Source: a virus. From it: a stretch of DNA of 64,000 nt. Below are positions 10,300 through 52,659 of this stretch, one piece after another. The DNA is taken from the IMG/VR virus record IMGVR_UViG_3300039008_000120, positions 1-64,000 of that record; one strand, 5' to 3'. A model generated the notes under the pieces. That model had not been told where the DNA came from. It searched no databases and saw nothing but the letters and a program-made list of their open reading frames with translations. The position numbers and the translations under genes were made by a program. Within the stretch, counting starts at the first letter, position 1, and the number at the start of each line of letters is the position of its first letter.

Positions 10300-10692
10300 A
10301 TGTACGAAGACATTAGATATGGTGAAAAATTATTTAAAGCTATCTGTAAAAATAGCTTAAAATGGGTATATGGTTCGTATATATTCAAAAAATATTTGGA
10401 AAAAAATCAACATTATATATATAATAATGGTAATGAAATCTTAGTTTGGGGGAATACTGTATGTCAGTTTACTCACTGTTTTGATAAAAACCAAAATAAA
10501 ATATTTGAAAACGATTTATTAAAATTCCATGCTGTTAAATTAAATTCAACCAACCAAGAATTTTCTTTTATCTCAAGTATTGTTTTTGTTAATGGAAAAT
10601 ATATATTGGCTGATGAAATGAACCCAAAAAAATCTGGTAGTGAAATATCAGATGGAATAATAATAGGAAATAAATATGATCCAATACAGTGA
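10300..10692 (+). CDS. YopX-like protein
   Basis: 130-aa track ORF. KWVYGSYIF ... ILVWGNTVCQFTHCFDKNQNKIFENDL. Confidence 0.55.
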   Translation: MYEDIRYGEKLFKAICKNSLKWVYGSYIFKKYLEKNQHYIYNNGNEILVWGNTVCQFTHCFDKNQNKIFENDLLKFHAVKLNSTNQEFSFISSIVFVNGKYILADEMNPKKSGSEISDGIIIGNKYDPIQ

Positions 10693-13956: not shown

Positions 13957-13965
13957 AAATTTTAA

Positions 13966-13975
13966 CCTGTTAAAC
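13966..13975 (-). promoter_or_regulatory. GTTTAACAGG motif immediately upstream of the TerL start
   Basis: Minus-strand CAGTTTAACAGGTTAAAATTTATG; the motif ends 12 nt before the ATG. Confidence 0.25.
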
Positions 13976-14118
13976 TGTACATCTATTAAATTAATTATAT
14001 AAATATAATATAGGGGTTAATTAATAATACCAAATGGGGTGTTTATCTAAAGTCCACATAACCACTTGGTTGGTATGGGGTGCCCAAAATATGTACATAA
14101 AATATAAATGTTTTATTA

Positions 14119-16737: not shown

Positions 16738-17196
16738 TTATACTACTTGTTGAGTTTGAGTAATTCTACCACTTGCATCATACGTATACTTCTATTTCTC
16801 AACTACTTTATTATCTGATGTTCTAGTATATGTTATATACTCAACTTTTTTATTACTATTGTATGTTATATTCGCTTCATACCCACTTTCGTATGTTGTT
16901 TTAACAACATTGCCTTCATTTCCGGGTGTAGTTGAATATTCAATATTAGTAACATTATCAGATTGCAAAATTTGAAACATAGATGAACCATGTACTGGTG
17001 TCTATTTTACAGTAGGTGTTATTTGTGATAATCGCTAATAACTGTTATTATCTTTTTGTAATGCCAAACGGTTTATTTCCCATGCTTGGAAATCTGCTGG
17101 TTTTTTACTTATTCTTTCAGCCCTATCTGTATATTCAAATGAATGTGGAGCATGTGATTGATTAAATGGAACTTTTTTATGTGGTACTGTCTGCAT
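16738..17196 (-). CDS. tail-fibre-associated protein (152 aa, 3 in-frame TAG)
   Basis: ATG at 17196. Absorbs track ORF 16792..16980. TAG at 17035, 17002 and 16792. N-terminal HAPHSFEY is shared with the next gene. YTYDASGRI is YD-repeat-like. Confidence 0.55.
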
Positions 17197-17208
17197 ATTA
17201 TTAACCTA

Positions 17209-18711
17209 TTATATATTAATGTTTATTTTAATATTTGATTCACCACCTGATAGCTTAGTTACCTTTGTATTTGATGGTGAATATTCAAGCTTATAATTAT
17301 TTATATTTTCTTCTTCCTATTTGCCAGCCTTTTTATAATTAATAGTTAGTTTTTTAATTGACGGAGTTTCATTGATATCACAAGGAGTTTTGAATATAAA
17401 TGCAAAATCAATAAATTGTTTATTTGACATATCATAATTAGTAAAACCCTCTCTTAATGTGGCACGTAATGACTGGATGCCTAATCCAGTTGCACTATCT
17501 GCTTGTAAGTCACTTAAAATCTAAGTACACCATTTGTTTGTATACTAAGTATTCCCTTTGTCGAAACTTACTGCCCAGTTTATGAATGTATGTGCCGGTA
17601 TCTCAGCATCCACTATAACAGATTCAATCATCTTGCAATTTTCAAGCTTAATTTGGTTTGGTTTAGTTTTTATTACACATGATTTATTACATGTATATTC
17701 TCCAGTTTCAGAAAAAAAACCATTTTTATAACCCCCACTCGATATCAAATTATTAACATCTTGAACTTGATTTCGCCTAGATTCTAACTCAAATATTAAT
17801 CCAACCGATAAAACATTATTATCATCAAAGTATGGAACATATACCTCATCATTATTAATAGAACCCAATGATAATGTTTTTAATAAATTCCCAAGACTAT
17901 TATAATATTTTATAGTTCGATTGTCAAAATCACACAATATTAACATTTTTTCATTTCGAGGGCATTTCTATTTATAAACCATATTATTATCTGGGTAATC
18001 TGCACCACCAAAACCCTACGTACTATTAGTCTTGCTTATACGCAATACACCAATATTATGTTCTGTACTAGTTGCTTTAATGTTAAATGATACCTTCCCT
18101 GATGATACACCTGTGCTAGGTGGGCAATACATACTTAAAAATTTACTAGCAACAGCACCATTAAATGCACACCTTAAGTTTGAGTGTTGATCTAATTCGA
18201 TTCCATTTGTATTTTTACTGCTCGAATATGTGGTATCAAAATATGAGTGTTGATCTAATGCTGGATTAACAACTTTCTTTAATTGTATTTTATCATTATC
18301 CGCATCAAATATATTATCTGGTGTATCAAAATCACTAAGGGTGCTACTATTATAATTTAATACATTATTATATTGTGTCGTATTTGGCACTTCTTTACGC
18401 ATAGTTACAAATCTAATTAAATTAGGATCTGCATTATGTGAAATCTCTTTTATATCATTGTTATTAAAATTTAAACACTCAACTTGTTTTACATATCTAT
18501 CTGTTGTAGGTGTTGATATTGTTACCTTATTCTATTGTATTGGCTCAATTGCATCCAAGACGTAATATTCATTTACAACTTTTGCCCATTTTCCAACATC
18601 AGTTTCTTTAAATCCAATTGCACCATTTAGTTCTGTAACGTTTGCATATTCAAACGCATGAGGTTTGTGAATATCTTTTCCACCTAGATCACTATGACGT
18701 ATTGTATTCAT
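17209..18711 (-). CDS. tail fibre or tail protein (500 aa, 6 in-frame TAG)
   Basis: One frame from the ATG at 18711 to TAA at 17209-11 joins track ORFs 18016..18402 and 17545..17946. TAG at 18532, 18016, 17968, 17545, 17521 and 17317. Confidence 0.65.
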
Positions 18712-18730
18712 TTTATATGACCCATATGTT

Positions 18731-18760
18731 AAAAAAGTAGGTCTTTCAACCTACTTTTTT
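18731..18760. terminator. A-run/T-run flanked hairpin terminator
   Basis: AAAAAAGTAGG-8 nt-CCTACTTTTTT between two tail-fibre genes. Confidence 0.6.
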
Positions 18761-18854
18761 TTATTAGAATACTTATGCGATTAGTTTTTTTCCTGACTGA
18801 TCTACTATAAACTCACCTGAGTCTGTAATTATATACTTCTTATTCTCTTGCGGG

Positions 18855-20543
18855 TTAAAGAGACACCGCATATGCAACTGATAGCTTAACAACAGGCTCA
18901 CGAACTGTGCTACCAGATACATATACTTGGACAATATCACCTTCAGCTAAGGCAATATTTAAGTCATCTTTATGACCCCCATTTGTATTTGTTATTGTTA
19001 ATTTACCAAGTGAAATTCTCTCTCCATTTTTAAATATATGAATATCACTTGTACCTGTAACATTCGCACCTAAGTGAGCTGTGATGCCAGTTACACACAT
19101 ATCTTTAGATACTCGGATTGATGATGCGTTTGTTAATATATCACCACCAATTTTAAGGTATTTACTATTTACCATACCTTTCCTTGAATATATGTATGTT
19201 TCTCTGGATGACAACCATTTATTACGTGTGGTGTCTTTTCCATACACTGTACCATCAATCAATTTAATATCATTGACAGTCATCCCAAAATTTTCAATTG
19301 CAGTACTGTTTGCTGATATTTCATCCGCATTCTTTTTAACTTCAGCATCAAGTAACTCTCTTGCACTAAATGCTGTGGTTGCACTATCCATATAGTTAGT
19401 ACCGGAATGTGCCTTAAAAGTACCATCTGCATTTAAATTTAATGCAGATTCAATTGCATCAATTTCGGCTTGTGTATTCCCTGCACCAATCGCATTTGGT
19501 GTATAGCCAAATTCTATATCATCTACATCAACTTTTCGTGCAACATCATGTTTACCAAGTATATAAAACTGATATCCTGCCTATCTATCACCCTCATATA
19601 CTGGGATTGTTGTTCCCGGTAACAGTTCATTTTCAGGTTTACCATCAAGATCTGGGCGACGTGTTAAAACCTACGGCTTTGATGCATCACCAACTTCAGT
19701 TACATCATATACACCGTTTTGTTTTTTATCTGCCTGTCCAGCTAATAATATAGTTGATGTTGCTGTTATTGTATGTGAATCTATTGATACCAATTTTCCA
19801 TTTGCATTAGCTGTTAATTTTGATGCATTATCATCTGCAACTGGGGTATATGTACACGCAGGTAAAGGATCAGTTGTTGCACATGATACATGTGCCTTCG
19901 GGGATACACCTTGCATCATTGTTAAAATCTATGATTTTCGAGCAACGGAATTCATTGTTTTAGGATCAGTTGTAGTTGTGACTTCGTTGTCACCCATACT
20001 AAGATCACCGGTCATTGTGTCACCGGCTTTATTAACTTTTTTATTTAAATCATCAGCAACAGTTGTTTTTAAAGTTTCTAATTTGGTGTCAACCGCTTTC
20101 AATTCAGCATCTAATAATGTACTATCTTCTTTAAGTGAACCTGACGCATTAAGATAATTTGATGTTGTTCTTGCTTTATATGAACCATCATCTTCTAAAC
20201 CACTACCTGTTTCAATCGCATCAATCTCTGCCTGAAGTTCAGTATCTTTTTGTTCAAATGCAGTGCGTAACTCAGCATCCTTATCATCTATATACTTTTT
20301 GGATGCTCTCTTGATCTAATCAATACCATCTGAAGCACTAAGATCATCTGTTCCATCATTAACCACAATTGAACCAGCGGTAATTAATGTCTTAAGATCA
20401 CCTTGTAGTGCTGTGCTTAGTTCATCAGATGTAAATTCACCTGATAAAATATCACCACTAGCACCATCGGGCATATCCTACCCTAAACTCTCAACAAATA
20501 ACACGTCTCCCGTCTTATTTATTAAATTAATAATCTATTCCAT
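18855..20543 (-). CDS. tail fibre protein A (562 aa, 6 in-frame TAG)
   Basis: One frame from the ATG at 20543 to TAA at 18855-57 joins track ORFs 19671..19919 and 18855..19391. TAG at 20535, 20478, 20316, 19929, 19671 and 19581. Contains NGVYDVTEVGDASKP*VLTRRPD, a common tail-fibre motif. Confidence 0.75.
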
Positions 20544-22102: not shown

Positions 22103-22723
22103 ATGAATGTTAATATTGAATCTATACGACAAAAAATAAATGAGATAACTGAAAAAATTAATAATGCAACATCTCAAGATGAACGTGATGAGTTGTTCCG
22201 TAAACGTAAATTTTAGTTAAACTCATTACATACTAAAAAACATAAAACTCGACTTGCAGAAATACAACGTTGTGCTAAAAATGCAAAACCTGAACCAGTT
22301 GAACCAAAAACACCTATTAAGGTTGTAATTAAAGAGGTTCCTGTTGAAATCATTAAAGAGGTTCCTGTTGAGGTTCCTGTTGAGGTTCCTGTTGAAAAAG
22401 AAATTTTAGTTGCAACAGATTCATCGGGTATTCCAGATATAATACATACTGATGAATTTATAGCAATACTGAAACAAATTAGAGAAAATTATATTAACAC
22501 CCAAACAAATCTAAAAGTTGGTGATATTGTTACAACCGCAGATAATACCAAAGTAAAAATAAAAGAATTTATCATTGATGAAAAAAGCGTTTTTAATAAA
22601 AATGGTGGAATTTTTGCTAAGGTTAAAAAAATAATGAACAATAAAAATGAAAGTAAACGATTTTTTGGTAAAGATCCAAGAGGGATCCAAGTAACTTTAT
22701 TAAACAAGGTTGAATCAAAATGA
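22103..22723 (+). CDS. hypothetical head-module protein with EVPV repeats (206 aa, 1 in-frame TAG)
   Basis: ATG at 22103 with a GGAG RBS. TAG at 22214-16. The TGA stop overlaps the next ATG (ATGA). Confidence 0.55.
22334..22393 (+). repeat. GAGGTTCCTGTT 12-nt coding repeat (4 copies, 3 in tandem)
   Basis: Copies at 22334, 22358, 22370 and 22382, encoding EVPV units. Confidence 0.85.
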
Positions 22724-24177
22724 CAAATAAAATAAATTTTTTAGATATTTTGCATAATCACGATAAAAAAGAATCAACATCTAGTGCAGATTTTGAACAT
22801 AATGCTCTGTTAAATAATGTAAAATATAAAGAAACTGATACACATATGTAGATTTATAATTTCCCGGGGAGTTTTGGTGACACCCAAAATAAAAATAACA
22901 GAGTATATGATTAGTCAACATTAAAACAAGCAACCACGTAGTTCCTTGATATTAAGGATTCAAACCCCTATTTTACATACATTTTCGATGGACATAGGGA
23001 TGATGATAGCTATGAAAATATTATAGGACGGATAGTAAATCTACACCCTGATGAAAGCACTAAGTGCATTTTAGTTGATCTTAAACTTAACAAAGGTTCA
23101 AAATCTTACAAAACAATCGAAAATATTATCAAAGATAAGGATCCTATCGGAATATCAATGAGAATAATTTCACCAGACACATTAGTTATGTCAAAAGAAG
23201 AGATTAGTCAAATAAATGAAAGTATATTATGGTTAGAAAATGATAACCCTAGTCTTTCAAAATTAATGTCTAATGACGATGAGATTGAATATGTTGTTGG
23301 AGAAGCATTTATATGGAGATTTGATCTAACATAGTTTCCTAGTTTTAACCGATCGTTTGTTGGTGAATTAGGTAAAACAAAAAACGAATCAGCCATTTCA
23401 TTTACAAAAACAATAGATTCATGTGGTTTGTTTGCTAAAAATGATAAGTGTATAACCGACTCTTGTAAGTTTAAACATACAATTAAAAGCTTTTTAGATA
23501 TTATCAATAATAGTAAAGATGAATCAATTACACTAATAAATGAACATCCCACATTATACGATGACATGCTAAAATTTGCATATATGAATTTATCAGAATT
23601 TAACTTTGATGAAATAAATTCAGAAAAATATTTAAGAGAAAAATTATCTGATTTTGAAATATCAAGCGGTGACAAAGATGATTAGATAAAAACCATCAAT
23701 GATATATGTGGTAAAAATAACATATTATCATATGTTACATCAAATAATTTAATTGATGTTGATAAATATGTTAAATTGGTTAATACTACTTTAACTAAGC
23801 TCATTAACGTTGATGAGATTTTTTATCAAATGGTAAGCACTAATTACTTACACTAGTTAATAGTCTCAACATTAATATTAGACAATAAAGTTAATGTAAA
23901 AATAAAAAATATTGACAATTTAAAAACCTTATTACAAGATACTGCTGATATAGAAAAAGATACCAACATTGATATTTTAGTAAAATTTCTAAATGATATG
24001 GATAAAACTGAAATCAATGTATATGATTTTACTAATATGATATTTACTTATATATATGGATACTTTGTTAGGTATACTGATGAAATACCACCAATCACAA
24101 TTCTAAATGAATCATTTAAAAGATTTTATAAACCAAATACAAAAAAACTATTTAAACACTCTTTTGCCAAAAAATAA
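22720..24177 (+). CDS. prohead protease-like protein (T4 gp21-like N-terminal half; 485 aa, 6 in-frame TAG)
   Basis: One frame from 22720 to TAA at 24175-77. TAG at 22849, 22912, 22939, 23332, 23683 and 23854. NKNNRVYD / FDGH / FDLT*FPSF resemble my recollection of gp21 NRNKRLYP / LNHP / VDAVWGPSA. Lies directly upstream of the scaffold and capsid genes. Confidence 0.5.
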
Positions 24178-24208
24178 GCGTTTTACAAAAACTACAAAAA
24201 AACCGATA

Positions 24209-24241
24209 ATGCTCATATATTAAATATATGGGCATTTTTTT
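24209..24241 (+). terminator. rho-independent terminator
   Basis: 12-bp stem ATGCTCATATAT/ATATATGGGCAT (one G-U pair), a 3-nt loop, then a T-run. Confidence 0.6.
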
Positions 24242-24266
24242 ATATAAAAAATCTCTGTTTTTAAAT

Positions 24267-24280
24267 TATATAAAAAAATA
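24267..24280 (+). promoter_or_regulatory. TATATAAAAAAATA box (late-promoter candidate)
   Basis: About 60 nt upstream of the scaffold ATG. A second TATATAAAAAAT lies at 24241-24252. Confidence 0.25.
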
Positions 24281-24339
24281 TAATTAATATGGTAACATTA
24301 TTTAGTTTTAAAATAACCAACAATAAAAAGGTAATATAC

Positions 24340-26040
24340 ATGTTAAAGAATAAGTTAATTAAACAGTTAAAAGACCTTATTTCTACAAAGAAAGAAGGTG
24401 AAATGACTGTTAAATTAGATGATGAGTCATCTAATATTTATGCAGAATTGTTAATACCGTTTATGGAGTTAACTCAGTCTGAAACACTAGAAGAGCTATC
24501 AATTGCTTTAAATGCATTAGTTGATAATAATGAAGCAGATGAACTCTATAAAAGTATTATCACAATTTTCATGGAAGAAATTAGTGAAGTAGATGAGTAT
24601 GATAAGGAACTTGATACACTTTCAGATAATATCATTGCCGTTTCTAATACATTCAATAATCTTAAAGAACAAAAAATAGTAAACGATGACAAAACTGAAT
24701 CTACTGAATTTGATAAGCTATCAGATGAAATTGTTAAATTTCTAAATGAAGATAATAATGGTGATACTAATGATGGTGGCGATGTAAATAACACTGATGG
24801 TACTGGAGACGTCAATACAAACGATGGTAATACCCCTGATAATACACCATCTGGTGATGAGAATGTTTTAGGTGACTATATACTATCCGATGATATTGAT
24901 GAAACTAAATGGTCTGAGATAAATAAAATCGAGTTAAAAAATCGTCTTGAAACAGAATTAACAAATGCTCCTGATGATAAAAAAGAAGATATAAAAAAAG
25001 TAATTAATGAAGTATATGCGATCGTTAGATCAGATGATAAAGCAGACTAGCTTTACCCACATCATACAATAAATGATAAAAATGAAATTCAACTAAATAA
25101 AAATGGTTTAACATCCGCAACACTAATGTTCCTTAAACCAAGTAATAGTAAAAATCTAACAACAGATGAAAAAACTGCTATTGCAAAACACCTAGTTAAA
25201 CATTACTCAAAAAATGAGATTGATGCACCTGCTAAACTTACTAAATTATCAGAATCTAAAGAGTCCACCATCATAATCAACGTAACAGATGATGAAATGA
25301 CAGAATTTGGTGAATTTTTTAAAGTCGGGGCTGGTGATGTTGGTGTATATGTTGGACTCATTGAAAACCTTTTAACTGACTTAACAAATTCTGGAATTAT
25401 TCAGTTAGATGGAAATGATGATAACAGCAACTATGATGAATCAGTTATTAGTGTTAAGTTGAACAAAGATCAAGTTAAAGAGGTTATCAATTATTTAGAT
25501 ATTATAAGCACTGATGTAATTAAATTACTATCGAATGATTTTGACTCTCTTTCATATAAAGCAACTGATGATGAATTAACTACATCATTTAAAGAAGCAA
25601 CCGCTATGGTAACATCTTTAAAAGAAAACGTTGAAGAGCTTGAGTCAACAATTGCTGAGCGAGATGAAGAAATTGCATCATTAAAGCTCAAAACTGATAG
25701 TGAAACATTAAATAAAAGCAAGTTTGAAGCAATTATCAACTTTATAAAAACAATTGAAGATGTAGATGATAATATTTTAAATTTCATGGAAAGTGTTATC
25801 GAAACAAATAATGAAAATGAAATTAATTATCTCCTTAAATTAAGTGGAAATTTCATGAAACAAACAAATAAACCACCTACATTTAAAAAGGTTAGTATGA
25901 TTAATCAGGTTGATTCTCAAAGTTTAGAAAGATTTAATAACATTCTAAATAATGATGTAGTAAATCAATCAAACAACGAATCAACTAAAATTACAGATGA
26001 AGTTTCAAAAACCGTTAATTCTATTGCGGAATTATTTTAA
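24340..26040 (+). CDS. scaffolding-like acidic protein (566 aa, 1 in-frame TAG)
   Basis: Track ORFs 24289..25050 and 25126..26040 share a frame and are joined by TAG at 25048-50. Start moved to the ATG at 24340 (AAGGT RBS). Acidic and coiled-coil-like, with an AD*LYPHH motif. Confidence 0.55.
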
Positions 26041-26083
26041 TAAGTAATGTAATAAAAGATAATTAATTAATAAACTACTAAAA

Positions 26084-26095
26084 TATAAAAAAATA
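26084..26095 (+). promoter_or_regulatory. TATAAAAAAATA box (late-promoter candidate)
   Basis: Lies 14 nt before the capsid gene's AAAGGG RBS. Confidence 0.25.
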
Positions 26096-26108
26096 AAGGG
26101 TTAAAATA

Positions 26109-27236
26109 ATGAAAAAACCGATGATTGATATTAGTAAGATTGGATTAGACAATAAAGAATCATTAGAAGTTGCAGGGTTCACTTCTAAAGCTAAAGAAAA
26201 GTATCAATTAGATGCTCATAAAAGTGATACTCTAAATTTAATGTATTCAAACATTTATCGTCAATTTAAAGTATTTAAGGAATCCAATGCTGGACAGGTT
26301 TCCAGCGATATTGAACCATTTAGAAATATTGCGATTGTTGCTACAACTAAATTCTTCACTCAAAATATTTTAAATAAATTGGTATCCATGCAGACAACAG
26401 ATAGTCCATATGGTTTAATTACATATGTTGATTTTCAGTATGCTGATGATCATACACCTGATAATATAAAAGCTGGGGATTCTATAGTAAAAAGATCAAA
26501 AACATATGGAAATCACGACACTGAACAAACAAAATCAAGAAGAATTAAAACAAGCGTAACAAACAAGCCTATTACTGCTGGTGTGAGAACAATTGAAGCG
26601 AGTTATACATTAGAATCTTGGTTGGCTATGGCATCTATTAAAGGACAAAAAGATGCCAAAAACTTTTTAGATAAAACATATCTCGAAGTAATTGCATCTA
26701 AATTAAGGGATGAAGCAGAATTTGCTACAATGGATGCACTTTATTCTGCATGTTTACCTCAGCATATTGTACCATTTAGTGTTGATGGTACTGATTGTGA
26801 TGCAAGAGATTGTGATGCTAGAAAATTCCTAGATAGCATCGAAGAGGCTGGGCAGAGAGTGTACGATACACACAAAGTATAGCCTAACACAATTGTAGTT
26901 GGTTCAGACGCAATGAAAATCATTCGCCGTGGTGAAGTGAAGATTGTTAATAAAAAAGGTTCTGATGGTTTACCATCATCTGTTGCTCGAAATTATCAGG
27001 GTGTAATGGATGATAGATATTCAATACTATATGACCCAGAGCTTTCGGGAGCATTAATGACTTGGAAAGACTCTAATTCAACGTTCGGAGCATCCGCCGT
27101 ATATACAAGTGTGGTGCCTCTTGCTGTAACTCCACCTATAACAGAGAAAGACTTAAGCACTTACCGTGTAGTTTATACAGTTGACAGTGTTGACGTAGTT
27201 CATCCAGAGTTAATTGCACGAGTAGATATAGTTTAA
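26109..27236 (+). CDS. major capsid protein (375 aa, 1 in-frame TAG)
   Basis: Track ORFs 26109..26882 and 26913..27236 share a frame and are joined by TAG at 26880-82. Follows the protease and scaffold genes, and a strong terminator follows it. Confidence 0.65.
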
Positions 27237-27272: not shown

Positions 27273-27672
27273 GATAAGATATAAATCAGTTTATGTAATA
27301 GACTTACCTATCACATAAGGGGATTATAATATGACAGCAATATGTGAAATATGTAATGAAAATTTTTATGATAATTATAGAAAATTATCCCATCATTTAC
27401 GTTCAGTTCATGGATTAAATGCCAAAGAATATCATGACACTATATTAAAAACACCAAATTCATGTAATAATACTAATTGCTCAAAACATGTTAATTTTAA
27501 AAACTTACAAATTGGTTATTTAAAATATTGTAGTAAATCTTGTGCAATAAATGAAATGGATAGAGAAAAAGCAACAAAAGAATATAAAAAAAACATGATC
27601 AATAAATATGGAGTAGATAATCCTTCTAAAATTAAACATGTTAAAGATAAAAGAAAAAAAACAAACATCAAG

Positions 27673-27747
27673 CGATACGGCGGTATCGCTCCGATATGCT
27701 CTGATGTAATTAAAAGTAAAATAAAAGAAACTAATATTAAACGATAT
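27673..27747 (+). repeat. 75-nt perfect direct repeat, copy 1
   Basis: Identical to 27949-28023 (offset 276 nt = 92 codons). Encodes RYGGIAPICSDVIKSKIKETNIKRY. Confidence 0.9.
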
Positions 27748-27948
27748 GGAGTAGATAACCCGTCTAAGCATCAAGATATCAAAGATCGGATTAAACACAC
27801 AAATAAGCAAAGATATGGTGTTGAAAATGTTTTCCAATGTGTTCATATTCAAAATCAAATAAAACAACAATATTTAGTGCAATATGGGGTAGATAACCCA
27901 TCTAAGTGCGAAGATGTAAAGAATAAAAAACAAAAAACTAATATTGAA

Positions 27949-28023
27949 CGATACGGCGGTATCGCTCCGATATGCTCTGATGTAATTAAAAGTAAAATAA
28001 AAGAAACTAATATTAAACGATAT
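27949..28023 (+). repeat. 75-nt perfect direct repeat, copy 2
   Basis: Identical to 27673-27747. Confidence 0.9.
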
Positions 28024-29122
28024 AACACTGATAATTATATGCAATCAGAAACACTTATTGAATATTATAAAACTAAATACAATTTGATATTAGCTCAAAA
28101 TAATTTAAAATTTATATCAGATTATACAACAACTGACAATATATATGATTTTGAATGTACTAAGTGTGGTCATAAATTTACACGCTATTTTAATACTACA
28201 TCAATGCCGAAACTCACATGCCCTAATTGCAATAAAGGAACAATGATAGAAAACTTAATAAAAGAAATTTTAAATAACAATAATATCAAATTTATAGTTA
28301 ATGATAGAAATGTTATAGCCCCATATGAATTAGATTTTTATTTACCTGAGTATAATATTGGAATTGAATGTCATGGTTTATATTGGCATTCTGAACAGTT
28401 TTTAAAAAAACATACAAAAGGTAATCCTAAACACTATCATTTAAACAAATTAAATTACTGTACCAATGCAGGTATAGAATTATTACAATTTTATGAAGAT
28501 GAAATTTTAAATAAATTTGATATAATTTCAGGTATTATTTTATCAAAGTGTAATAGATTAAAACCGATTTGTTATGCCCGTAATACTGAAATTAAACTTA
28601 TAAATAATTCGGTTGCTAATGATTTTCTTGAATTAAACCATTTACACGGTAGATCAAGTAAAGAAATATCACTGGGTGCATATTTTGATGATACATTAAT
28701 TGCTGTTATGACATTTAAAAAATCTGCAATAAGTCGATCTAATTATGATACATGGGAATTAGATCGATTTTGTACATTAAATAATTGTCATATACCGGGA
28801 ATCGCAAGTAAATTATTTAAATATTTTATTAAACACAATCCTGATATTAATAAAATTACAACATACGCTGACTTGAGATTTAGTGTAGGTAACTTGTATA
28901 AACAATTAGGATTTAATTTTATACACCAAAGTAAACCAAATTATTTTTACATAATCAATAAATCTCGTAAACATAGATTTTCTTTTAGAAAGTCAATATT
29001 AAAATCCAAATTAAGTGGATTTGATAATAACTTAACTGAATATAATAATATGCTAAACCATGGTATTGATAGAATTTGGGATTGCGGTCACTTAAAATTT
29101 GAATGGAATCGTTAATAATAAA

Positions 29123-29187: not shown

Positions 29188-29730
29188 TTATTTTATTTTA
29201 TGTTGTAAGTCTTTTTGCATTTGTGTAATGTACATAGTTGAACACCGCTTTGCTATATATGTAAGATGACGATCATCTAAATTTTTATGTAATAACCCTG
29301 ACCGCTTTCTAACACTTAGCACTGAACTATTTTTATAAATTTGTCTTTTTTTATTAATGTTTTTTATAAATTCATCTGTTTTAAATTCAATAACACCATA
29401 CTTGTTATTAATTTTTTCAGCATATGATATAGCATCTGAAACTAAGAAGGTTGGTACACAAAAATAATATCGATTAGGTATCAACCATGGTAATATTGTT
29501 TCATTTTTTTTAATCTGATATGACTTATGTTTATCAGATTTATGTTTCAATTCGTTTAATAAGTCTGATTTTGAAATTTTTATTTCAACTTCAACAATTT
29601 CTTTTTTCTTTAAATTTAATGCAACTACATCCATATAATTATACTCAGTTGCACTTATACAACCCTTTTCAAAACGATACTATTCCATAAGGGCTAATTT
29701 TAATTCAAAACTTGTAATTTTATAATTCAT
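29188..29730 (-). CDS. MmcB-like / PD-(D/E)XK nuclease-fold protein (180 aa, 1 in-frame TAG)
   Basis: Track ORF 29188..29634 extended through TAG at 29680-82 to the ATG at 29730 (AAAGGA RBS). DVVALN...EVEIKISKSD pattern. Confidence 0.45.
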
Positions 29731-29879
29731 CAATATTTTGTCCTTTCAATTATTGGATGAGAATTTGGTGTCAGTTTTATATCGCATTTGTATATATATG
29801 TAAACATAATAAATATTACTAAATATACAATAAATGATATAACAGTTATCTTATTATCTATATTATTTTTTAATTGCAT
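29730..29879 (-). CDS. small membrane protein (49 aa)
   Basis: ATG at 29879 with an AGGTGA RBS. TM-like ITVISFIVYLVIFIMFTYIY. The TGA stop overlaps the next ATG (TGATG). Below the track cutoff. Confidence 0.45.
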   Translation of the reverse strand: MQLKNNIDNKITVISFIVYLVIFIMFTYIYKCDIKLTPNSHPIIERTKY

Positions 29880-29903
29880 AATACAACTTTCACCTATACT
29901 ATT

Positions 29904-30152
29904 TTAATATTTATCCATATTGGCAACTGATTGTGCAAAAATTACTGCATATTTCTGCTCCCCAAATAACCCATGTACTCTTGGTGGTACTTCACCCTTA
30001 TTTGATATAGTTTCAACAACTGCCCACGTTGTATGTATATTATCACAGTTAAGACGTTTTTGGGGATCATGACAAACTATTAGGTTACCAGCAACGGGTA
30101 GATCCTGTAACGGAATATCTAAATAATTACTATTATATATTATAACTTCCAT
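29904..30152 (-). CDS. hypothetical protein
   Basis: 82-aa track ORF. Confidence 0.55.
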   Translation of the reverse strand: MEVIIYNSNYLDIPLQDLPVAGNLIVCHDPQKRLNCDNIHTTWAVVETISNKGEVPPRVHGLFGEQKYAVIFAQSVANMDKY

Positions 30153-30163
30153 ATCAGAACCTC

Positions 30164-30388
30164 CTATTCACCCTTCATTTTCCAACATTCATATAAATAT
30201 AAAAACGGTGCTATATTTTCTCTTTCTTCACTCCATAAAACAACATTCCCGGATTCTTTTTCAACAAGACACCACATTTTTTTTCTAAATGTTTCATATT
30301 TATAATGACATTCACCATGATAGAAGTCCGTACAAACACGTCCTTCTATTTCAAAGTCTCTTTTTTCGATACTAAACATTTTATACAT
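30164..30388 (-). CDS. hypothetical protein
   Basis: 74-aa track ORF. Confidence 0.5.
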   Translation of the reverse strand: MYKMFSIEKRDFEIEGRVCTDFYHGECHYKYETFRKKMWCLVEKESGNVVLWSEERENIAPFLYLYECWKMKGE

Positions 30389-30661
30389 TTATTGGTTATC
30401 CTTTATAATCAATGAATATTTATCTTCAAAAAGTTCGGCAGACATAAAAGATATTTCACTATTGGAATTTACTATATAATATCCACCTATATGAGGATCA
30501 TATTTTAAAACATAGTGTTTACTAACTGTAACTGGTGGATATTTTTTTAATTCTGGATAAATTATAGCATATTTATTTTTATACTCAATTCGTCCTATCT
30601 TTAGTCCATATACCTCTTCATGTCGTCCATATTTTGGGAGTTCCGATATTAGTTTATCCAT
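30389..30661 (-). CDS. hypothetical protein
   Basis: Track ORF trimmed to the ATG at 30661, which overlaps the upstream TGA (TGATG). Confidence 0.55.
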   Translation of the reverse strand: MDKLISELPKYGRHEEVYGLKIGRIEYKNKYAIIYPELKKYPPVTVSKHYVLKYDPHIGGYYIVNSNSEISFMSAELFEDKYSLIIKDNQ

Positions 30662-30891
30662 CAACCCACCTGAATTAACTTAATAGATTTTTCAAAATCT
30701 TTCCATGCTTTACTTTGTTTTATAATATCATGGTCACACAGTACATCATCAATAACTTGAGTAGAAACCATTGCTAGTTTTAATAATATTTTAGAACAAC
30801 TTGCGGATGGCTGTTCAAATGTTCGTATTTGCCATTCACAAAATTCAAAAAACTCTGATAGTTCCATATAATCATCCAATCTACTTTTCAT
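30661..30891 (-). CDS. hypothetical protein
   Basis: Track ORF 30661..30993 trimmed to an internal ATG (30891; 30867 is the alternative) because the upstream gene occupies 30872..31072 in another frame. Confidence 0.45.
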   Translation of the reverse strand: MKSRLDDYMELSEFFEFCEWQIRTFEQPSASCSKILLKLAMVSTQVIDDVLCDHDIIKQSKAWKDFEKSIKLIQVG

Positions 30892-31072
30892 GTTTATATT
30901 TATATGATAATTCACCTGTACAAGTTTCTCTGCAATTTTTATCATATCGGTTTTCAAGCCACTCGATGTAATCATCGGTAAAGATAAAATCACCCATTGC
31001 TAAACTACCAACATGTGGTTTTTTTCCTGTTTCATATGTATATATATCATGTAAGTTCATACACTCTACCAT
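30872..31072 (-). CDS. hypothetical protein (66 aa, 1 in-frame TAG)
   Basis: Track ORF 30881..31072 ends in TAG. Two more codons lead to TGA at 30872-74. Confidence 0.5.
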
Positions 31073-31080
31073 AAATATTG

Positions 31081-31437
31081 TTAAATAAATTTGATATTTT
31101 GAACATAAACATTCTCTACTGTTCCATCGGATTTTTCAATCAAAGCCGTTGAAAAATTTCCTGCTCCTGATTCAAATTCTTCATAATCAATACCAAATTG
31201 ATGAAACACACCAATATACATTAAATGCTGTTTTTTACAATTATCATAGACTTCAACTTTCCTCACTGTATTATCCTTAACAACAGCATCAGTCGGTTTT
31301 TTTTCAGTATCAGAATATTTATCCATAACACTATTAATAGCACTCCACACTTCCGACTTATATCCATGAAAATCTTCACCAGTTAATTCAACTAGTCTAT
31401 CAATTAATTCACTTATAAATTGGTATTTAGTATTCAA
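31081..31437 (-). CDS. hypothetical protein
   Basis: Track ORF 31081..31515 trimmed to TTG at 31437, preceded by a GGAGG RBS and lying downstream of the chemoreceptor stop. Confidence 0.45.
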   Translation of the reverse strand: MNTKYQFISELIDRLVELTGEDFHGYKSEVWSAINSVMDKYSDTEKKPTDAVVKDNTVRKVEVYDNCKKQHLMYIGVFHQFGIDYEEFESGAGNFSTALIEKSDGTVENVYVQNIKFI

Positions 31438-31459
31438 TATTATTTCCTCCAGATATATA

Positions 31460-33418
31460 TTAAACTTTAAATTTTGATATAATGTTTTTAAAATTGGAAA
31501 TACAATTAACATCAAGTTTTTCTATAATTTGAACCAACTTGCTAAAATCATCAGATATAGATTTATTAACCTCATCGATCGTGGTTATATTATTTGACAT
31601 ATTATTTATATCTACCATCATTTTTTTAAGATTTGAAAAAATTAACTCAATTCCACCCGAAACATCTGTCACATTTTTAGACATTTCATCACTTGAAATT
31701 GATTGTTCTTCGGTTGATGAGGCAACTGTGTTCATAACATCATTTACTTTATTCATATCAGTATTCACAGATGAAAGACCAGATTTTGATATTGATGTTT
31801 GTTCTTGAACATGTGATATTTTCTGTTTAATATCAACAGTTGCATTCGCTGTTTGTTTGGATAGTTCCTTTATTTCATTTGCAACAACAGCAAAACCCTT
31901 TCCAGCTTCACCTGCTCTTGCTGATTCTATCTGTGCATTTAATGATAATAAATTGGTTTGATCTGCTATATCAGAAATTAGCTCTATTATAGTATTTATA
32001 TCTAATGCTGACTGGTCTAAGCTATCAACAACTGTAAAGTTATCATTTAACTTTTTAATAGTTTCATCTATCATACCTTTGACACAATCCGCATTTTCAG
32101 CAATTTCATTTACTGTATATGACATCTCTTCTATACCAGACACTATAGTAGAAATGTTCCCAGATGATTCATCCGCTGATTGTAATATCTGTTTACAATT
32201 ATTATCAACAGAGTTACTAGTTGTATCAATATTTTGGATATTCTCAGTATTTTTATTTAATTCTAACTGTGATTCATTTGATAAATGAATAATTTCATTA
32301 AAATTATTAGATAAGTCATCATTTGCAATTTTTATATCAGTAATAATTGTATGAAGCGACTCGAAAAAAATATTAAACCAATGAATCAAATTATCCAATT
32401 CATCACCTGAGTTATTTTGTGGTAACCTAACTCTCAAATCACCATCACCTGTAGCAATATCTTTAATATTACTTTTAAGGTTTAAAATTGGTTTTAGTAT
32501 TTTATGATCAAAAATAAAAGTTACAATTACCAATAAAATAACTAATCCAATAAAACTAATTATACATCCAGCAATATTTAAATGTTTAATTTCACTAAAA
32601 AAAACATTTTCATCAACCACGACACCAAGTGACCATGATTTGATACCATAATTAAATAATATTGGTGTGAATGTATAAAACGAGTTTATTTTGCTTTGAC
32701 TTGATGTCATTTGCCAATTAAACGAGTTTTCACGTTGAATATTTTCTGTTATGTTAATAACATCATAGAACTCATTTACATTTCGATTTACTATATGCTT
32801 TTGTGGATGCCCAACAATATATCCATTATTATTTGATATAATAATATAACCACTATTAAATGGTTTAATGGTTTTTGCTATATTAACAAACTCTTGTGTT
32901 AAAATATCAATTTCAATATAACCAATATGTTTTTTATTTTTTTTAATTGAATATGTAATTGTAAATATTAATTCATCTGCATATGTTTTATATGGATCAG
33001 AAATTGCAAATCCTTCTATATTATATTTGATTTTATTTATATGCTTATTTTCTTTACTGAAAATAATTTTATTGTTAATCTCATATGCGTTTATATTATA
33101 ATTATTTGTTTTTATTCGAATACCAATAATATCAGTATTAACTAATTGATATTTTAACTCCTTCTTAATATTTGATACACCAACTATTTGTGATATCTTT
33201 ATACTTGTATTGGTGATCTGATTAATATATAATGACATTTTTCTATAGATTGATTTAGAATATGCTTCTGAACTTTTTTGTAACGCATACATACTTTTAT
33301 CATATATTATGTCTGATGCAATATGATTTGCAACTGATATTATTGCCACACATACCAATGTTATAACTATACTTATTGGTATAAGTAATTTTAATTTTAA
33401 ACTTTCAGAATATTTCAT
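31460..33418 (-). CDS. methyl-accepting chemotaxis protein (two TM segments, Cache-like sensor, HAMP, MA domain)
   Basis: 652-aa track ORF. TM segments at about aa 10-35 and 285-310. HAMP-like segment. Signalling hairpin [40 protein letters not shown]. Confidence 0.85.
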
Positions 33419-33605
33419 TACATCAACCCATAAATCTATTTTGTTTTTATTTTACTGTTGTTAAGCTTAATTTCAATATTATCAATGATAACACTTTTAC
33501 CTGAAGTAATAATACTTATATCATTTTCTGTCAATCTTATTATATTGCCACATCTTTATATATTCGTATTATCATTGAGATTTAATTCCCATTTCTCAAT
33601 ACCAA

Positions 33606-34160
33606 TTATGTTTTTTTATTTAAAAAAATATCATATAAAGCCCCACAACACCTCGCATCACTCAATGCGTCATGGTGATTTAGTTTTATATTATAATGTA
33701 ATGCCAATTCATTTAATTTTGTATTTTTATAACCTAGCTTTTTATAAATATTTTTCGTACAAACCCAATTATTGTTTTCACATAAACCATAATCATTTGC
33801 AATCCCATAATATTTTATACACTCACACATTACACTTTTATCAAATACTGCATTATGTGCAACAATTGTCGATCCAGATAAAATTTTTGCAATTTCTGGG
33901 AATATTTGAACAAATAAGGGTGCTTTTTGTGTCATTTCTGGTGTAATGCCCGTCAGATTAATATTGTCTTTGTGGTGATAATTATTAGGTGGTCGTATTA
34001 ATTGGTTATACTCATATACTATATTTGAATTTTCAAAAACAACTATAGCAACAGAGCTTGCTGATATCCTAGTAAATCTATTTGCAGTCTCAAAGTCGAT
34101 TGCACAATATTTCAATCTAATACCTCCATATCTATACTTAATTCCATGTAATTTCATCAT
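33606..34160 (-). CDS. DnaQ/epsilon-like DEDDh 3'-5' exonuclease
   Basis: 184-aa track ORF. AIDFETAN (ExoI), HNAVFDKSV (ExoII), HHDALSDA (ExoIII). Confidence 0.8.
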   Translation of the reverse strand: MMKLHGIKYRYGGIRLKYCAIDFETANRFTRISASSVAIVVFENSNIVYEYNQLIRPPNNYHHKDNINLTGITPEMTQKAPLFVQIFPEIAKILSGSTIVAHNAVFDKSVMCECIKYYGIANDYGLCENNNWVCTKNIYKKLGYKNTKLNELALHYNIKLNHHDALSDARCCGALYDIFLNKKT

Positions 34161-35169: not shown

Positions 35170-36453
35170 TCAATCTAAATCTCCACCATCTTCAGCGAAG
35201 AATAGTATAATTTTACCGTCTCGTGCATTACTATCTGTTGTACATTTTACTAGAACTGTATCGTTCTCCTTAAAATCAACATTCAAATCATTAACCACAA
35301 CACCTGTTGCAGATGAAATTGTTATTATACTCAAATCATTTGGTTCGTTGTTTTTTCTTACATGAAACTTTAAATTAGATGTAGATCTAATTGTTGCACT
35401 AGCACCAACTAAAACTGAATTTTTGGGTATTTTCAACCCCCCAAGATTTGACGGAATATTCCCTATTGTACGTAAATACATATTTCTACATATACCAGTT
35501 TTACCAAGCTCAAATTGAAAGCGATTTCCTAGCTATTTCTCACGTTCACTGTCTTTTATATAGTATGTATTATTAATAATTTTGAAATTATTTAAAACAT
35601 TATCACATGATTTTAATTTTTTATCAATCAGTTCGAGTACTTTGGATAAAGATTCTCCGACCTTTGAACCAATTGTACTAAGGTCTGCAATTGTTGAAAT
35701 TTCGGTGGTTTTGTGTTTTCCGGGTTTACCATTTAAATGTGATCCAAAATCAATATCACCGATTTTCCCCCATGATGTAGTTGTGGTGGTACCATCACTA
35801 TCAATGCCATGCACATACTGAGCTTGTTTACCGTCACCATCGTCATCAATTACAACACCATAGTTATCTTTAACTGGGTTATCTGCTGACAATACAAAGT
35901 CAGTGCCATCATATTCATAAACTTTATTATCGGTTATATTAATAATTCTATCAGCAATTTTAACATCACCAATTGATACCCACTTACCATCAATTACTTT
36001 GAAATATGATTTTGATGTAGAATTGTAATATATACTACCTTCTTTACCAACATCCGGTTCAGTTGCAGATATATTTAAAAAATATTTAATTGGTGTTAAC
36101 TAAACACTAGGTGAACCAAAACTTGGGGCACCGAATATATTGTCCCAGTGAACCTTTGATTCACCTGCTTTCCCCAGTTGTTTTTTGCTATAATAATGTC
36201 GCTCAAGATCTAAGACATTTTGTCGCCTTAAATACTTCAGTGCATCTTCAATAGATAGGTCATCATCACCATCATTTACAATAATTGAACCGGCAGTAAT
36301 TAATGTCTTAAGATCTTCTGATGAACATAGCTCACCATAGTCAAATTGATCACTGGTTAGTATATTCTCTGATCCCTCCAATACCAAACCAATATCTGGT
36401 ATTTCCAAATCACCCGGATTTTGATTTTTTAAATATATAGTCTAATCTGCCAT
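35170..36453 (-). CDS. tail fibre protein B (427 aa, 3 in-frame TAG)
   Basis: One frame from the ATG at 36453 to TGA at 35170-72 joins track ORFs 36100..36408, 35533..35892 and 35170..35481. TAG at 36442, 36100 and 35533. Shares the N-terminal DLKTLITAGSI(I/V)VNDG module with fibre A. Confidence 0.7.
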
Positions 36454-36471
36454 AGTTAATTACCTCATTAT

Positions 36472-37092
36472 TTAAATTAACTGTAATGTTAATATTGGTT
36501 TATCTAATCCATCTTTTGAATCGATATAACATGAAATATTATCATTTTTATTAAACATTATATCTTTATCAAAACCGGTTGCATATTTAGCATTATCTAA
36601 ACTTATTGTTAAAATAACATTATTATTATTTTTTATTTCAACAACCCCAGTGTTGTGCTTGCTTGTTCTTAAAATCTACCGTTTTAGCGTTTTTTTACGC
36701 AAAACAGTATAACCATGTAAATTAGTTGGTATTCTAGTTAACTAATGCATATATCGTTTTTTTACGTGATTAGTATTAATATAAAAATGTATTTCACTTA
36801 TATCAACTACTGTACTATCTAGTGGTATACTTGCTTTTCCTAGTTTTTCCTAATTATTAATATCTTGGAAATTTTCATCAGTTAACCGATATAAACCATT
36901 ATTCGTTTCAATATCATTATAAACTGAAACAATCATACCACGATATGTATATACATACCCATCATTTGCTTCCCAGATACTTGTTTTACACAAATCTGAT
37001 TTATATTCAACTCGACTCCTAGCATCAAGTGGTGCTGATTTTTGAGGTTCGAAGTTAGCGGAAAAACTACTAGTTCCTTTTTCTCTTCCCAT
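36472..37092 (-). CDS. tail or baseplate-region hypothetical protein (206 aa, 3 in-frame TAG)
   Basis: ATG at 37092 with a GAGGT RBS. Track ORF 36850..37092 continues through TAG at 36850, 36742 and 36676 to TAA at 36472-74. Confidence 0.55.
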
Positions 37093-37113
37093 CTTACACT
37101 AACCTCTTTTTTA

Positions 37114-38004
37114 TTAATTTGTGTACCATCTTAGTGACCTATAACCGGTTTTACTACCATTATGTATATACCTAACATAATCAATAGTATTACCATGTAT
37201 TTCATGCTGAGTTGAAGTTTTTGTGAACGTTCTTAAACTATTTTCTTTTGTTCCTGATATCTATTCCTACTTCCCCGAAACAGTATTATAAAATTGAATA
37301 CCTGTTATATTTTTCCATAGTACCGGAAAATCAACTGTTTGTTTCTTGTCAGTTTCTTCAATTTCAACCACACACTCTACATATGTACTTGACATTGATG
37401 CAAGTTTTTGTTTAGAAAGCATCGATATATGTTTTGATGTTGCAAAAAATGGATATACACCGATAATCTCACAGCTACTATAATTAGTATACCCACTATT
37501 TAATTTTTTTTTGTAAGGTCTACCTTTATTTGTCAGTGGCTGTTCACCACCTTCAAACAAAACTCTACATTTCTATTGTGTAGAACCACGTATAACTTCA
37601 TATGAAATTGTTTGTGTATTTGATAGTTGATTTGATATAATTTTATCTGGAACTGTTTTTCCTAAAAAATTGTATTCTTTTGGTAAACCAGAACGAAACC
37701 CACTAGTACCATATGCTGGATTAATATATCCCCGGTTAAAATTTGCAATAATATCAAGATTCGGTATAATTTCACCAATTTCTCGAAACCCACTTACAGA
37801 GCTTCGAAGTGTTACGCTTGGGTTACCTAACCTAGGATAACGTTCTGGATATAATAACATATCCTACATTTCAGTCATTGTATTCTCATCGAAGGTTTGA
37901 CCTATATTTATACCCCCAACTGCAATTTCAACCGGATCATCATTTGAATATAAAACATCACATGATGTTGAAGTTGAATCATATTTATTGTTATATTTTA
38001 ACAT
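37114..38004 (-). CDS. tail or baseplate-region hypothetical protein (5 in-frame TAG; in-frame TGA at 37201-03)
   Basis: ATG at 38004. The frame joins track ORFs 37573..37860 and 37267..37560 through TAG at 37864, 37573, 37267, 37261 and 37237. It then meets TGA at 37201 but stays open 28 more codons to TAA at 37114-16, just before the next RBS. The true end is either 37201 or 37114. Confidence 0.5.
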
Positions 38005-50778: not shown

Positions 50779-52659
50779 TTACCATATTACATTTAACTTA
50801 AAATCATAAGAATATATACTATAATTATGACTTTTAGATACAAGATTAATTTTCCTCGATGAACGTTTACGTTTAAATTTATTTGAATCATGATTTTTAT
50901 TAGTTATATTTGTTAATACATTATTTCCTGATTCAAATAGAGATAGAATATCTTCATCTTCAACCGGTTCAATATTATTTTCTAAGTCTTCGTCGGTGAT
51001 ATCCTCTAATATATCAGACATTACATCATTCGGAAATAGTTTATTAAGAATAAATTCATCTTTAATGTTCATTCCCAACATTTGTTCTAACTGGGTAAAC
51101 ATTGTAACAAATTTTGACGACTTATCTAAATCTGTTTCTTTTCGTTCACTCATTGGAACAAATTCAGGTATATTAACATTTAAATATTTAATGTCTAAAT
51201 CTTTATAATTAACACCTAACTACTTTTCCATCTAAAACGTTAATATATTATTTAACATTACTTGATAATGGCGAATTTTCATTGAATAAACATTATCATG
51301 TAGTGCCAACATGCTATTATTCTGATATGTTTTGGCATTACTTGATTTTCTATAATGTAAAGGAATACCCATAGTATGATATACCTTATCCTACCAGTAA
51401 TCAATGTCATCCAGTAGTGGCTTGTATTCAGATTTTAATGTGTCTATTTTTAAATTTTCACCCTCAGTTGGAACAATCAAATTTGAATCTATGAGATTTT
51501 TTACAATATCAAAACTCATTTGATCTGTTGTTTCATCAAAATTCATTGCTGATTTCGATTTTACTAAATTTCGATATAACATAAGTGTGTTTGCAATGTC
51601 TTCATCTTCAATTTTTTCTAAATCCAATTTCCAAATGTGAGTTGTTTTAGATTTCGATAATCTCTCTATTAATAATGACAACTCTAACAGCTCGATAACT
51701 TTTAAATAATTTATAACTTTGTCAACTTGAGATTTTCCAATTACACCTTTTTCAGCAATGAAAAACATGTTCTCGGATTTTAATTCTGTACCATCTTCGA
51801 TTTTAAATATACTAATATTCTTATTGGTTATTTTTTTTAAATGATCATCTTCATCTATTGTTTTAAACATAGTGGTTGATGAATTACCTGATGATTCAAG
51901 TAAATCATTACTAATTTTTGTTGAATTTATTGTAGTGTTACCATTTGAAGTTTCCTTAAACACTACCTCATCAAGGCTATAAAAACTAACATCTGAATAT
52001 GTCTTAACGTCATCAAAATAAAAAATTCCACACCCATACCGCAAAATACTGTTTACTAAATTATACAATGAAAGTTTAATATTATTTCTCTTTAATAAAT
52101 TTCCAATCGCTAGTGATATTTCTTTGTGATGTGAATCAACTTTTTCAACGTTGTTGTTATAAATAAGCTGATCAACCTCTATATTTGGAACATTGATATC
52201 ATCGATAATATCAGTAGAATCGGATGTAGTACTATCGTTTATATATCTAGTATCTATTTTTTTCTCCAAAACTTTATACTCACCGAATAAATTAACCTCA
52301 ATCTTTCTTTTATTTGATGATGATGTATATATAATAGATGATGCTAACATATCTATTAAATATTCAATTTCTGGAAAACGATCTAAATATAAATTAACTC
52401 TATTAATTAATGATAATTTAGAATCAAAGCCACCATTAACTGTAACAATACCTAACCTATTAAATAAATCAGTGCTAACATTATTAATAAATTCATTCGA
52501 TTCATTTAACACATTATATGCACTACTTCGTGCAGTTGGTAACGACTTTGATATTAAATTATCAAGCTCCCCAGTTTTAACTAATTCTTTACCCTAAGAC
52601 ACCCCATTACTTTTTTTCTCAAAGTTAAGTGAATGTCGTTTTTTTGTAAAATTTATCAT
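50779..52659 (-). CDS. portal protein (626 aa, 4 in-frame TAG)
   Basis: One frame from the ATG at 52659 to the stop at 50779 joins track ORFs 51391..52512 and 50779..51153. TAG at 52594, 51391, 51232 and 51220. DMLASSIIYTS and DDIDYW*DKVYHTMGIPLHYR resemble T4 gp20 segments as I recall them. Acidic C-terminal tail. Confidence 0.7.

Follow-up and report, generated by a model that had tools for sequence, protein, structure and literature searches.

The window analysed here comprises positions 1 to 64,000 of the virus record IMGVR_UViG_3300039008_000120 in IMG/VR (64,000 nucleotides, one strand) and carries, on its minus strand, a gene for a methyl-accepting chemotaxis protein (MCP). A preliminary description, made from the letters of the sequence, had reported here an open reading frame (ORF) of 652 amino acids (aa) with two transmembrane (TM) segments around a sensor of about 250 aa, followed by a HAMP-like linker and a canonical signalling hairpin. 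Coordinates and hydropathy agree with the first part of this description, and the gene can be divided as follows.

31460–33418, minus strand: complete coding sequence of the phage chemoreceptor, 652 aa, with an ATG start, a TAA stop and no in-frame TAG
33332–33394, minus strand: first transmembrane segment (TM1), about residues 9–29, by Kyte–Doolittle hydropathy (19-residue window, above 1.6)
32579–33331, minus strand: periplasmic double-Cache (dCache) sensor, about residues 30–280, with the fold assigned by model and a sub-threshold profile match
32510–32578, minus strand: second transmembrane segment (TM2), about residues 281–303, by hydropathy
32351–32503, minus strand: HAMP domain, residues 306–356, by Pfam HAMP, with P310 in AS1 and D339-E340 opening AS2
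31463–32350, minus strand: kinase-control (signalling) hairpin, residues 357–652, by Pfam MCPsignal, PDB alignments and arm lengths
31853–31972, minus strand: hairpin-tip motif, residues 483–522, with the tip at E504, by alignments to PcaY, Aer, Tsr and TM1143

Profile searches with Pfam gave matches above cutoff for MCPsignal (PF00015; residues 450–588, 99.4 bits against 34.6) and for HAMP (residues 306–356, 34.2 bits against 25), and the motif that the preliminary description had quoted for the hairpin was found at residues 483–522. Linker and hairpin are therefore as described. The match to dCache_1 (PF02743; residues 68–217) did not reach threshold, with 28.4 bits against a cutoff of 45. 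Matches to the cytoplasmic half of the protein were also given by NCBIfam models of named chemoreceptors (CtpM, Tar, Aer2, and others), at scores far under their equivalog cutoffs. The two hydrophobic segments are separated by about 251 aa, which corresponds to a class-I topology (TM1, sensor, TM2, HAMP). The other two reading frames of the same DNA hold 64 and 107 stop codons. We are highly confident that this is a real, intact and phage-resident MCP gene.

When the protein is aligned to solved receptors, E504 comes to lie at the hairpin tip, where Tsr has E391. The conserved-tip pattern (...QTNLLALNA.IEAARAGE.G.GFAVVA.E...) is present, with all invariant columns of the alignment (A2) kept. 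In known receptors this tip region contacts CheA and CheW. The N-terminal arm (residues 357–504) and the C-terminal arm (504–652) are symmetric, with 148 aa or about 21 heptads each, and the protein ends in FKV, exactly where its homologues end. Arm symmetry, invariant tip columns and this end point argue for an intact, foldable hairpin. To place the receptor among the length classes of MCPs, arms were measured in 112 homologues from the first protein search, the first arm running from the DExG motif in HAMP AS2 to the tip and the second from there to the C-terminus. The arm pairs correspond to classes as follows.

158/140: class 40H, for example in Vibrio receptors of 628 aa
165/147: class 42H
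172/154–155: class 44H
221/203: class 58H

The phage receptor has the arm pair 165/148, and 165/147 is found in nine of its 12 best homologues. In the PDB alignments its arms exceed those of PcaY (184/140, fits 40H) by 7 and 8 residues, that is, by one heptad per arm, and fall about one heptad short of TM1143 (arms of about 154 residues, fits 44H), with 7 residues less in the N-terminal arm. By length the receptor therefore belongs to class 42H, an assignment made from the arms and not from the Alexander–Zhulin class hidden Markov models. Classes 40H and 44H were rejected, because the arms are 7–8 residues longer than the former and about 6–7 shorter than the latter. Class 42H is reportedly a minor class in the scheme of Alexander and Zhulin from 2007. 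The heptad class, which the preliminary description had left to be assigned, thus comes with a hairpin that is neither truncated nor asymmetric. Cellular MCPs of 42H type (P0002–P0012) share with the phage receptor a conserved HAMP domain with the signature KDIA.G.GDL ... WFN.F.E.L, the arm lengths and a near-identical tip, but differ from it in their sensors (Cache_3-Cache_2, 4HB, and others).

The sensor (residues 30–285) was modelled with AlphaFold (AF2) on the basis of an alignment of 32 homologues (A1). The model (mean predicted local distance difference test, pLDDT, 84.9; predicted template-modelling score, pTM, 0.81) predicts a long N-terminal helix (2–49) followed by two alpha/beta (beta-sheet) PDC modules. 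A Foldseek search of the PDB with this model returned at the top only dCache ligand-binding domains (MkcA, TlpC, PacA, TlpA, Mlp24, PctA, CtaA), with a probability of 1.0 and TM-scores of 0.6–0.72. The best matches by phmmer to PDB sequences are Vibrio Mlp24 and Mlp37 (E about 4e-6), over the conserved strands of the distal module. Since the profile score lies under the Pfam cutoff, we file the sensor as a dCache fold by structure and not as a curated member of dCache_1; the term "Cache-like" in the preliminary description was right at the level of the fold.

The amino-acid motif that Gumerov et al. reportedly described for dCache sensors in 2022 consists of Y121, R126, W128, Y129, Y144 and D173 in PctA numbering. 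Like the dCache amino-acid receptors PctA, Mlp24, Mlp37 and CtaA (PDB 5ltx, 3c8c, 5ave, 6pxy), the phage receptor has the double-PDC fold and the conserved strands of the distal module, including the DPY and E-I-D motifs. Unlike PctA with its R126, W128 and Y129, the phage sensor has K, I and F at these positions, and of the motif it keeps only the equivalents of Y144 (in DPY) and D173 (in EIDI), assignments that are tentative since the MAFFT alignment A1 is one of low identity. The substitutions suggest that the carboxyl-binding half of the motif is missing, and canonical amino-acid sensing is improbable for this domain. When the sensor was compared exhaustively by phmmer with 1.84 billion representative proteins, nothing below 1e-30 was found except its own cluster; the next-best match (E = 1.6e-14, 29–35% identity) covers the second half of the domain only.

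For the receptor as a whole, no close homologue was found in a collection of 5.8 billion proteins. The best homologues are 30–37% identical, and the match is limited to the cytoplasmic half. Matches in reference genomes come mostly from Desulfobacterales, Planctomycetes and Acidobacteriota, with Chitinispirillia and Bacteroidota-like genomes among them as well; two homologues have Bacteroidota-like neighbours (SusC, FecR and an extracytoplasmic-function (ECF) sigma factor in one case, a protein sorted by the type IX secretion system (T9SS) in the other). None of these genomes is AT-rich (34–40% GC or more versus 26% in the phage). The preliminary description had looked to the closest bacterial homologues for the identity of the host, but at such identities, spread over many phyla, they gave no host, and we rejected an assignment on this basis. 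The preliminary description had implied a motile, chemotactic, AT-rich host; that it is motile and chemotactic is a reasonable though tentative inference.

The gene lies in DNA that is clearly that of a phage, as the preliminary description had held. Two hallmark genes of the window are the following.

12103–14016: large terminase subunit, T4-like, with the PHROG alignment running across five in-frame TAG codons
26109–27236: Gp23-like major head protein, by profile match

The window also encodes tail genes with in-frame TAG, an SbcC-like nuclease, a CCA-adding/poly(A)-polymerase-like enzyme, a DEDDh exonuclease, YopX proteins, an adenylylsulfate (APS) kinase and a PD-(D/E)XK nuclease. With a GC content of 25.3% overall and 15.5% at third codon positions (GC3), the receptor gene is close to the genome means of 26.4% and 16.5%, and of the 49 genes of at least 150 aa only one comes nearer than it to the genome average in synonymous codon usage. 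No break in GC or skew was seen at 31–34 kb. The exact receptor (V404) and a one-residue variant (D404) were found on contigs of 232,818 bp and 95,075 bp from the Joint Genome Institute (JGI) and in the Logan assembly of SRR21418661. Across these three or four independent assemblies the receptor locus and both of its flanks are identical to within 0–2 mismatches in 15–20 kb (two in 20.4 kb for the JGI contig of sample 3300045489, none for Logan SRR21418661), and the contigs end away from the receptor junctions. JGI sample 3300045498 and SRR21418663 yielded further parts of the phage. The shared junctions together with the genome-typical composition make chimerism, which the preliminary description had named as the finding that would undo its reading, very unlikely. 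In the receptor, the JGI 95-kb contig departs from the window by one non-synonymous change only, V404D (window position 32208, codon 404, in the coiled coil of the N-terminal arm).

The window belongs to a jumbo phage of about 233 kb, which also has rIIB. Metagenomic contigs of its relatives measure 271 kb and 276 kb, with capsid proteins that are 66–85% identical. A tblastn search of GenBank phages with the capsid gave no match, so that the lineage appears to be without a cultured or deposited representative, and megablast of 24 kb around the receptor against the same phages returned just a 49-nt match in a homing-endonuclease-like region. A search of IMG/VR for close relatives of the receptor and the terminase found none, with the limit that the terminase query carried a guessed Q at each TAG and was possibly spoiled by it. 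No integrase was seen in the window, and a PADLOC scan gave no link to a defence system.

Several genes of this phage are interrupted by TAG unless this codon is read as sense. With TAG as sense, there are 9 instead of 4 stop-to-stop ORFs that reach 500 codons or more, and coding density is about 90% over 87 genes. Genes with at least two TAG contain 57 of them in 5310 codons, or 1.07 per 100 codons. The receptor gene contains none in 652 codons, as had been noted in the preliminary description, and at the rate of the TAG-using genes the probability of this outcome is about 9e-4. The receptor thus belongs to the genes kept readable in the standard code. In the recoded phages described by Borges et al. 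(bioRxiv 10.1101/2021.08.26.457843), as in the phage studied here, in-frame TAG occurs in late and structural genes while a subset of genes remains readable in the standard code. Under their model, a TAG-free receptor gene could be expressed ahead of code switching or irrespective of it.

The receptor gene lies in a stretch that is not shared by the closest relative of the phage, a metagenomic locus that we call L095. Two features describe this setting.

29731–33605, minus strand: TAG-free accessory island of 3.9 kb with five or six small ORFs and the receptor gene, delimited by tblastn synteny against L095
33419–33605, minus strand: intergenic region upstream of the receptor gene, 187 nt, the largest local gap, with promoter-like hexamers and GGGTT

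The island is bordered by a conserved gene (29188–29730) and by the gene of a DEDDh/RNase T-like exonuclease (33606–34160). In tblastn comparisons the homologues of these two border genes lie about 0.7 kb apart in L095, with no MCP between them, versus 3.9 kb in the window. Two of the small ORFs of the island fall into phage-only PHROGs (phrog_11049 and phrog_11000). By this comparison, we regard the receptor as an accessory gene in a variable island, outside the core of the lineage. The minus strand carries every gene between 35014 and 29188. A ribosome-binding-like motif, GGGTT, stands at 33425–33429, 8 nt upstream of the receptor ATG, and AAGGT or GGGTT precedes many genes of this phage. 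The gap also contains sigma-70-like hexamers (TTGAAA-16-TAAAAT at 33476–33449); since a promoter scan found 69 such sites versus 64.7 expected by shuffling, which is not above expectation in AT-rich DNA, we claim no promoter. Downstream of the receptor, an ORF at 31081–31515 (minus strand) overlaps the last 56 nt of the receptor gene if its first TTG is taken as the start. Only residues 89–144 of this ORF match a phage family (phrog_11000), and its true start is probably further downstream, which would make the overlap an artefact of ORF calling.

Phage-borne MCPs as such are not new, as follows from PHROG 8572, from a Vibrio jumbo phage and from published reports. PHROG 8572, a phage family without assigned function, matches the receptor with E = 1.3e-54 over residues 286–589 (TM2, HAMP and the signalling domain), and the match omits the sensor. 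A tblastn search of GenBank phages found MCP-like genes in bona fide jumbo phages. The cultured Vibrio phage vB_VmeM-Yong XC31 (290 kb) encodes a protein of 610 aa (QAX96201.1; copies in XC32 and MS31), annotated as hypothetical, which has the same dCache_1-HAMP-MCPsignal architecture as the receptor. This protein differs in that its dCache_1 match, at 74 bits, is above cutoff; the phage that carries it is of an unrelated lineage and has a different host, and the identity of the protein to the receptor, 26.8%, extends over the C-terminal half only. Microcystis phage MaAM05 encodes a protoglobin-MCPsignal protein. Auxiliary MCP genes have been described for viruses of Desulfovibrio (PMC9448743, where one earlier report is cited); the viral MCPs linked to D. 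vulgaris were given predicted ligands, namely C2/C3 carboxylates, alanine or lactate. CheR and CheY accompany an MCP in the Nitrosospira phages roc1 and ripk2 (bioRxiv 10.64898/2026.05.02.722434), and in both reports MCP genes on viral contigs are proposed to help or alter host chemotaxis. In the literature we found annotation-level mentions of phage MCPs only and no functional work, and a large comparative review of jumbo phages makes no mention of chemotaxis. Against this background, what distinguishes the present receptor is its 42H-type length, a sensor without close relatives, its solitary occurrence, unlike the Nitrosospira phages with their added CheR and CheY, and its setting in a TAG-recoded jumbo phage. 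It is a rare but previously known kind of phage cargo that might influence where the infected host swims.

How might such a receptor act? The reading that we favour, at a probability of roughly 55%, is that of a working chemoreceptor that feeds the CheA/CheW array of the host and biases the swimming of the infected cell. The protein would be made early by unmodified ribosomes of the host, ahead of TAG recoding or independently of it, in a setting given by TAG-free neighbours on the same strand and the 187-nt upstream gap. It would insert into the inner membrane by its two TM helices and dimerise, and its conserved tip could let it join the host array beside host receptors of the same length class. 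Receptors are known to co-assemble in such arrays with those of the same length class. Binding of a small molecule to the divergent dCache sensor would then modulate host CheA activity and flagellar switching, so that the infected cell would swim by a cue chosen by the phage. In this scheme the phage would contribute the sensor only and would rely on the host for a kinase, a coupling protein, a response regulator and whatever adaptation enzymes there are. If the receptor works in this way, it offers a clear case of sensory input given by a virus to the navigation of its host, and since it is complete, solitary, clearly phage-resident and expressible without an altered code, it is well suited for testing.

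We are considerably more hesitant about what such steering would be for. It is a tentative idea, more doubtful than not, that a virulent jumbo phage steers its host by means of an early, standard-code receptor that senses a phage-relevant cue, for example dense or metabolically active prey, and thereby carries the phage towards a larger burst or onward transmission.

Several observations weigh against a working chemoreceptor. The homologues are distant, scattered over many phyla and alike in the cytoplasmic half only, and the sensor has neither a close relative nor the canonical amino-acid-binding residues. Since the nearest relative lacks the gene at the syntenic site, the lineage can do without it. 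In about 84 kb (the window and 10 kb on each side) we detected no member of the CheA, CheW, CheY, CheR or CheB families, so that any function of the receptor would depend entirely on the host. Finally, the strict methylation consensus ([ASTG][ASTG]xx[EQ][EQ]xx[ASTG][ASTG]) occurs once (residues 567–576), and five Glx pairs stand against a median of nine in the homologues. The strict motif does not discriminate, because its median in the homologues is also one; the low number of Glx pairs suggests that adaptation may be weak. A C-terminal pentapeptide of the NWETF type is absent from the receptor. Accessory status, sparse Glx pairs and the absence of host information are the reasons why our confidence in the mechanism is moderate.

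The scarcity of candidate methylation sites would also fit a receptor that does no true gradient sensing. Over-produced, dominant and poorly adapting, such a protein could jam the array by locking the kinase on or off, which would fix or stop motility; possible purposes are to save energy, to keep the infected cell where it is, or to bar flagellum-dependent phages from superinfecting it. For this the tip appears conserved enough to bind CheA and CheW, and adaptation enzymes of the phage's own are absent from the region examined. A jammer, however, would not need an intact folded sensor of 250 aa, a HAMP domain and exactly matched arms, and several cellular homologues of 42H type are equally poor in strict motifs. 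The intact sensor, the HAMP domain and the exact arm symmetry favour a true sensor over both a jammer and a pseudogene, and we consider jamming unlikely.

A lower probability still is given to the proposal that the receptor feeds a host pathway other than the flagellar one, such as type IV pili, the control of cyclic di-GMP or of biofilms, or gene regulation, or that it senses the environment for a decision of the phage. MCP-domain receptors are said to serve alternative Che-like pathways as well, according to the classification of Wuichet and Zhulin from 2010, and this counts in favour of the proposal. So does the uncommon 42H type, as does the fact that the closest homologues occur in lineages such as Desulfobacterales, Planctomycetes and the FCB group, where chemosensory outputs are poorly studied. 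Against it, neither a receiver nor a kinase nor an output domain was found among the neighbouring genes.

Slightly less probable again is a functionless passenger, a host gene caught in a hypervariable island and drifting to loss. Its location in an accessory island without counterpart in the nearest relative, the strong divergence of the sensor and the modest MCPsignal score of 99 bits could be read in this way. A drifting gene would hardly be expected to remain open over 652 codons in a genome of 25% GC, where the alternative frames are full of stops, nor to keep the invariant tip residues, the arm symmetry and the C-terminal end point. Moreover, the fully ameliorated codon usage points to long residence under selection, and samples differ by a single residue (V404D).

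That bacterial MCP DNA was mis-joined into a phage contig, by assembly or by host contamination, is a reading for which we found no support and which can practically be dismissed, since composition and codon usage are those of the phage, the same sequence recurs with its flanks in the JGI 3300045489 contig and in Logan SRR21418661, and the ORFs on either side of the receptor belong to phage families.

Apart from the receptor, the genetic code of the phage deserves attention. We had assumed initially that TAG encodes glutamine, and this was ruled out by alignment to the relatives. TAG codons of late genes in the window (TAG-bearing late genes are, for example, 12103–14016, 16738–20543, 22103–27236, 35170–38004 and 50779–52659) were aligned to two related loci, L095 and L096, and fall there on TGG (16 cases), TAG (8), TAT (3), TTT (1) and CAT (1); in these loci they never fall on a glutamine codon (CAA or CAG). 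Conversely, TAG codons of the relatives align to TGG in the window 4 times. The TAG at codon 258 of the capsid gene corresponds to tryptophan in all eight of the more distant homologues (8/8). The two closest database proteins have a Q at this position, which is probably an artefact of translation with code 15, because the locus under the standard code does not give the database protein. From these alignments, TAG appears to encode tryptophan in this phage clade. This differs from the recoded phages of Borges et al., who observed only the recoding of TAG as glutamine and of TGA as tryptophan, and a TAG-to-tryptophan code would therefore be unusual. The lineage of phages of about 230–276 kb, together with this apparent code, may hold wider interest than the receptor itself.

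About 1.5 kb past the right end of the window, a gene at 8273–9289 of locus L088 (minus strand in that locus) encodes a divergent class-Ib aminoacyl-tRNA synthetase of 338 aa. Its best match is tryptophan–tRNA ligase (TIGR00233 trpS) with 79.6 bits, below cutoff, and this resemblance makes it a candidate enzyme for loading tryptophan onto a TAG suppressor. No tRNA genes were found in the window or in the flanks examined, nor any Rfam family in the window. In the related phage of 276 kb, 15 tRNA genes lie just downstream of the capsid gene (L096 11831–18673), with no CUA anticodon in the stretch seen.

The capsid gene of the window is followed directly, at 27331–29115 (plus strand), by a gene for a large homing endonuclease with a DUF7487/zinc-ribbon domain (PHROG 3339, E = 6e-120). 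At the same place the closest relative has three tandem paralogues of it (L095 11296–16214), and a Logan contig ends inside this gene, probably owing to such repeats. The APS kinase gene (57103–57642, minus strand; PF01583, 110 bits) contains one in-frame TAG; in a related phage an APS-kinase-like gene adjoins the capsid gene. It may be an auxiliary gene of sulfur metabolism or a nucleotide-kinase gene. At 9051–11329 (plus strand), three consecutive genes of the YopX family (PF09643) form a small paralogous array.

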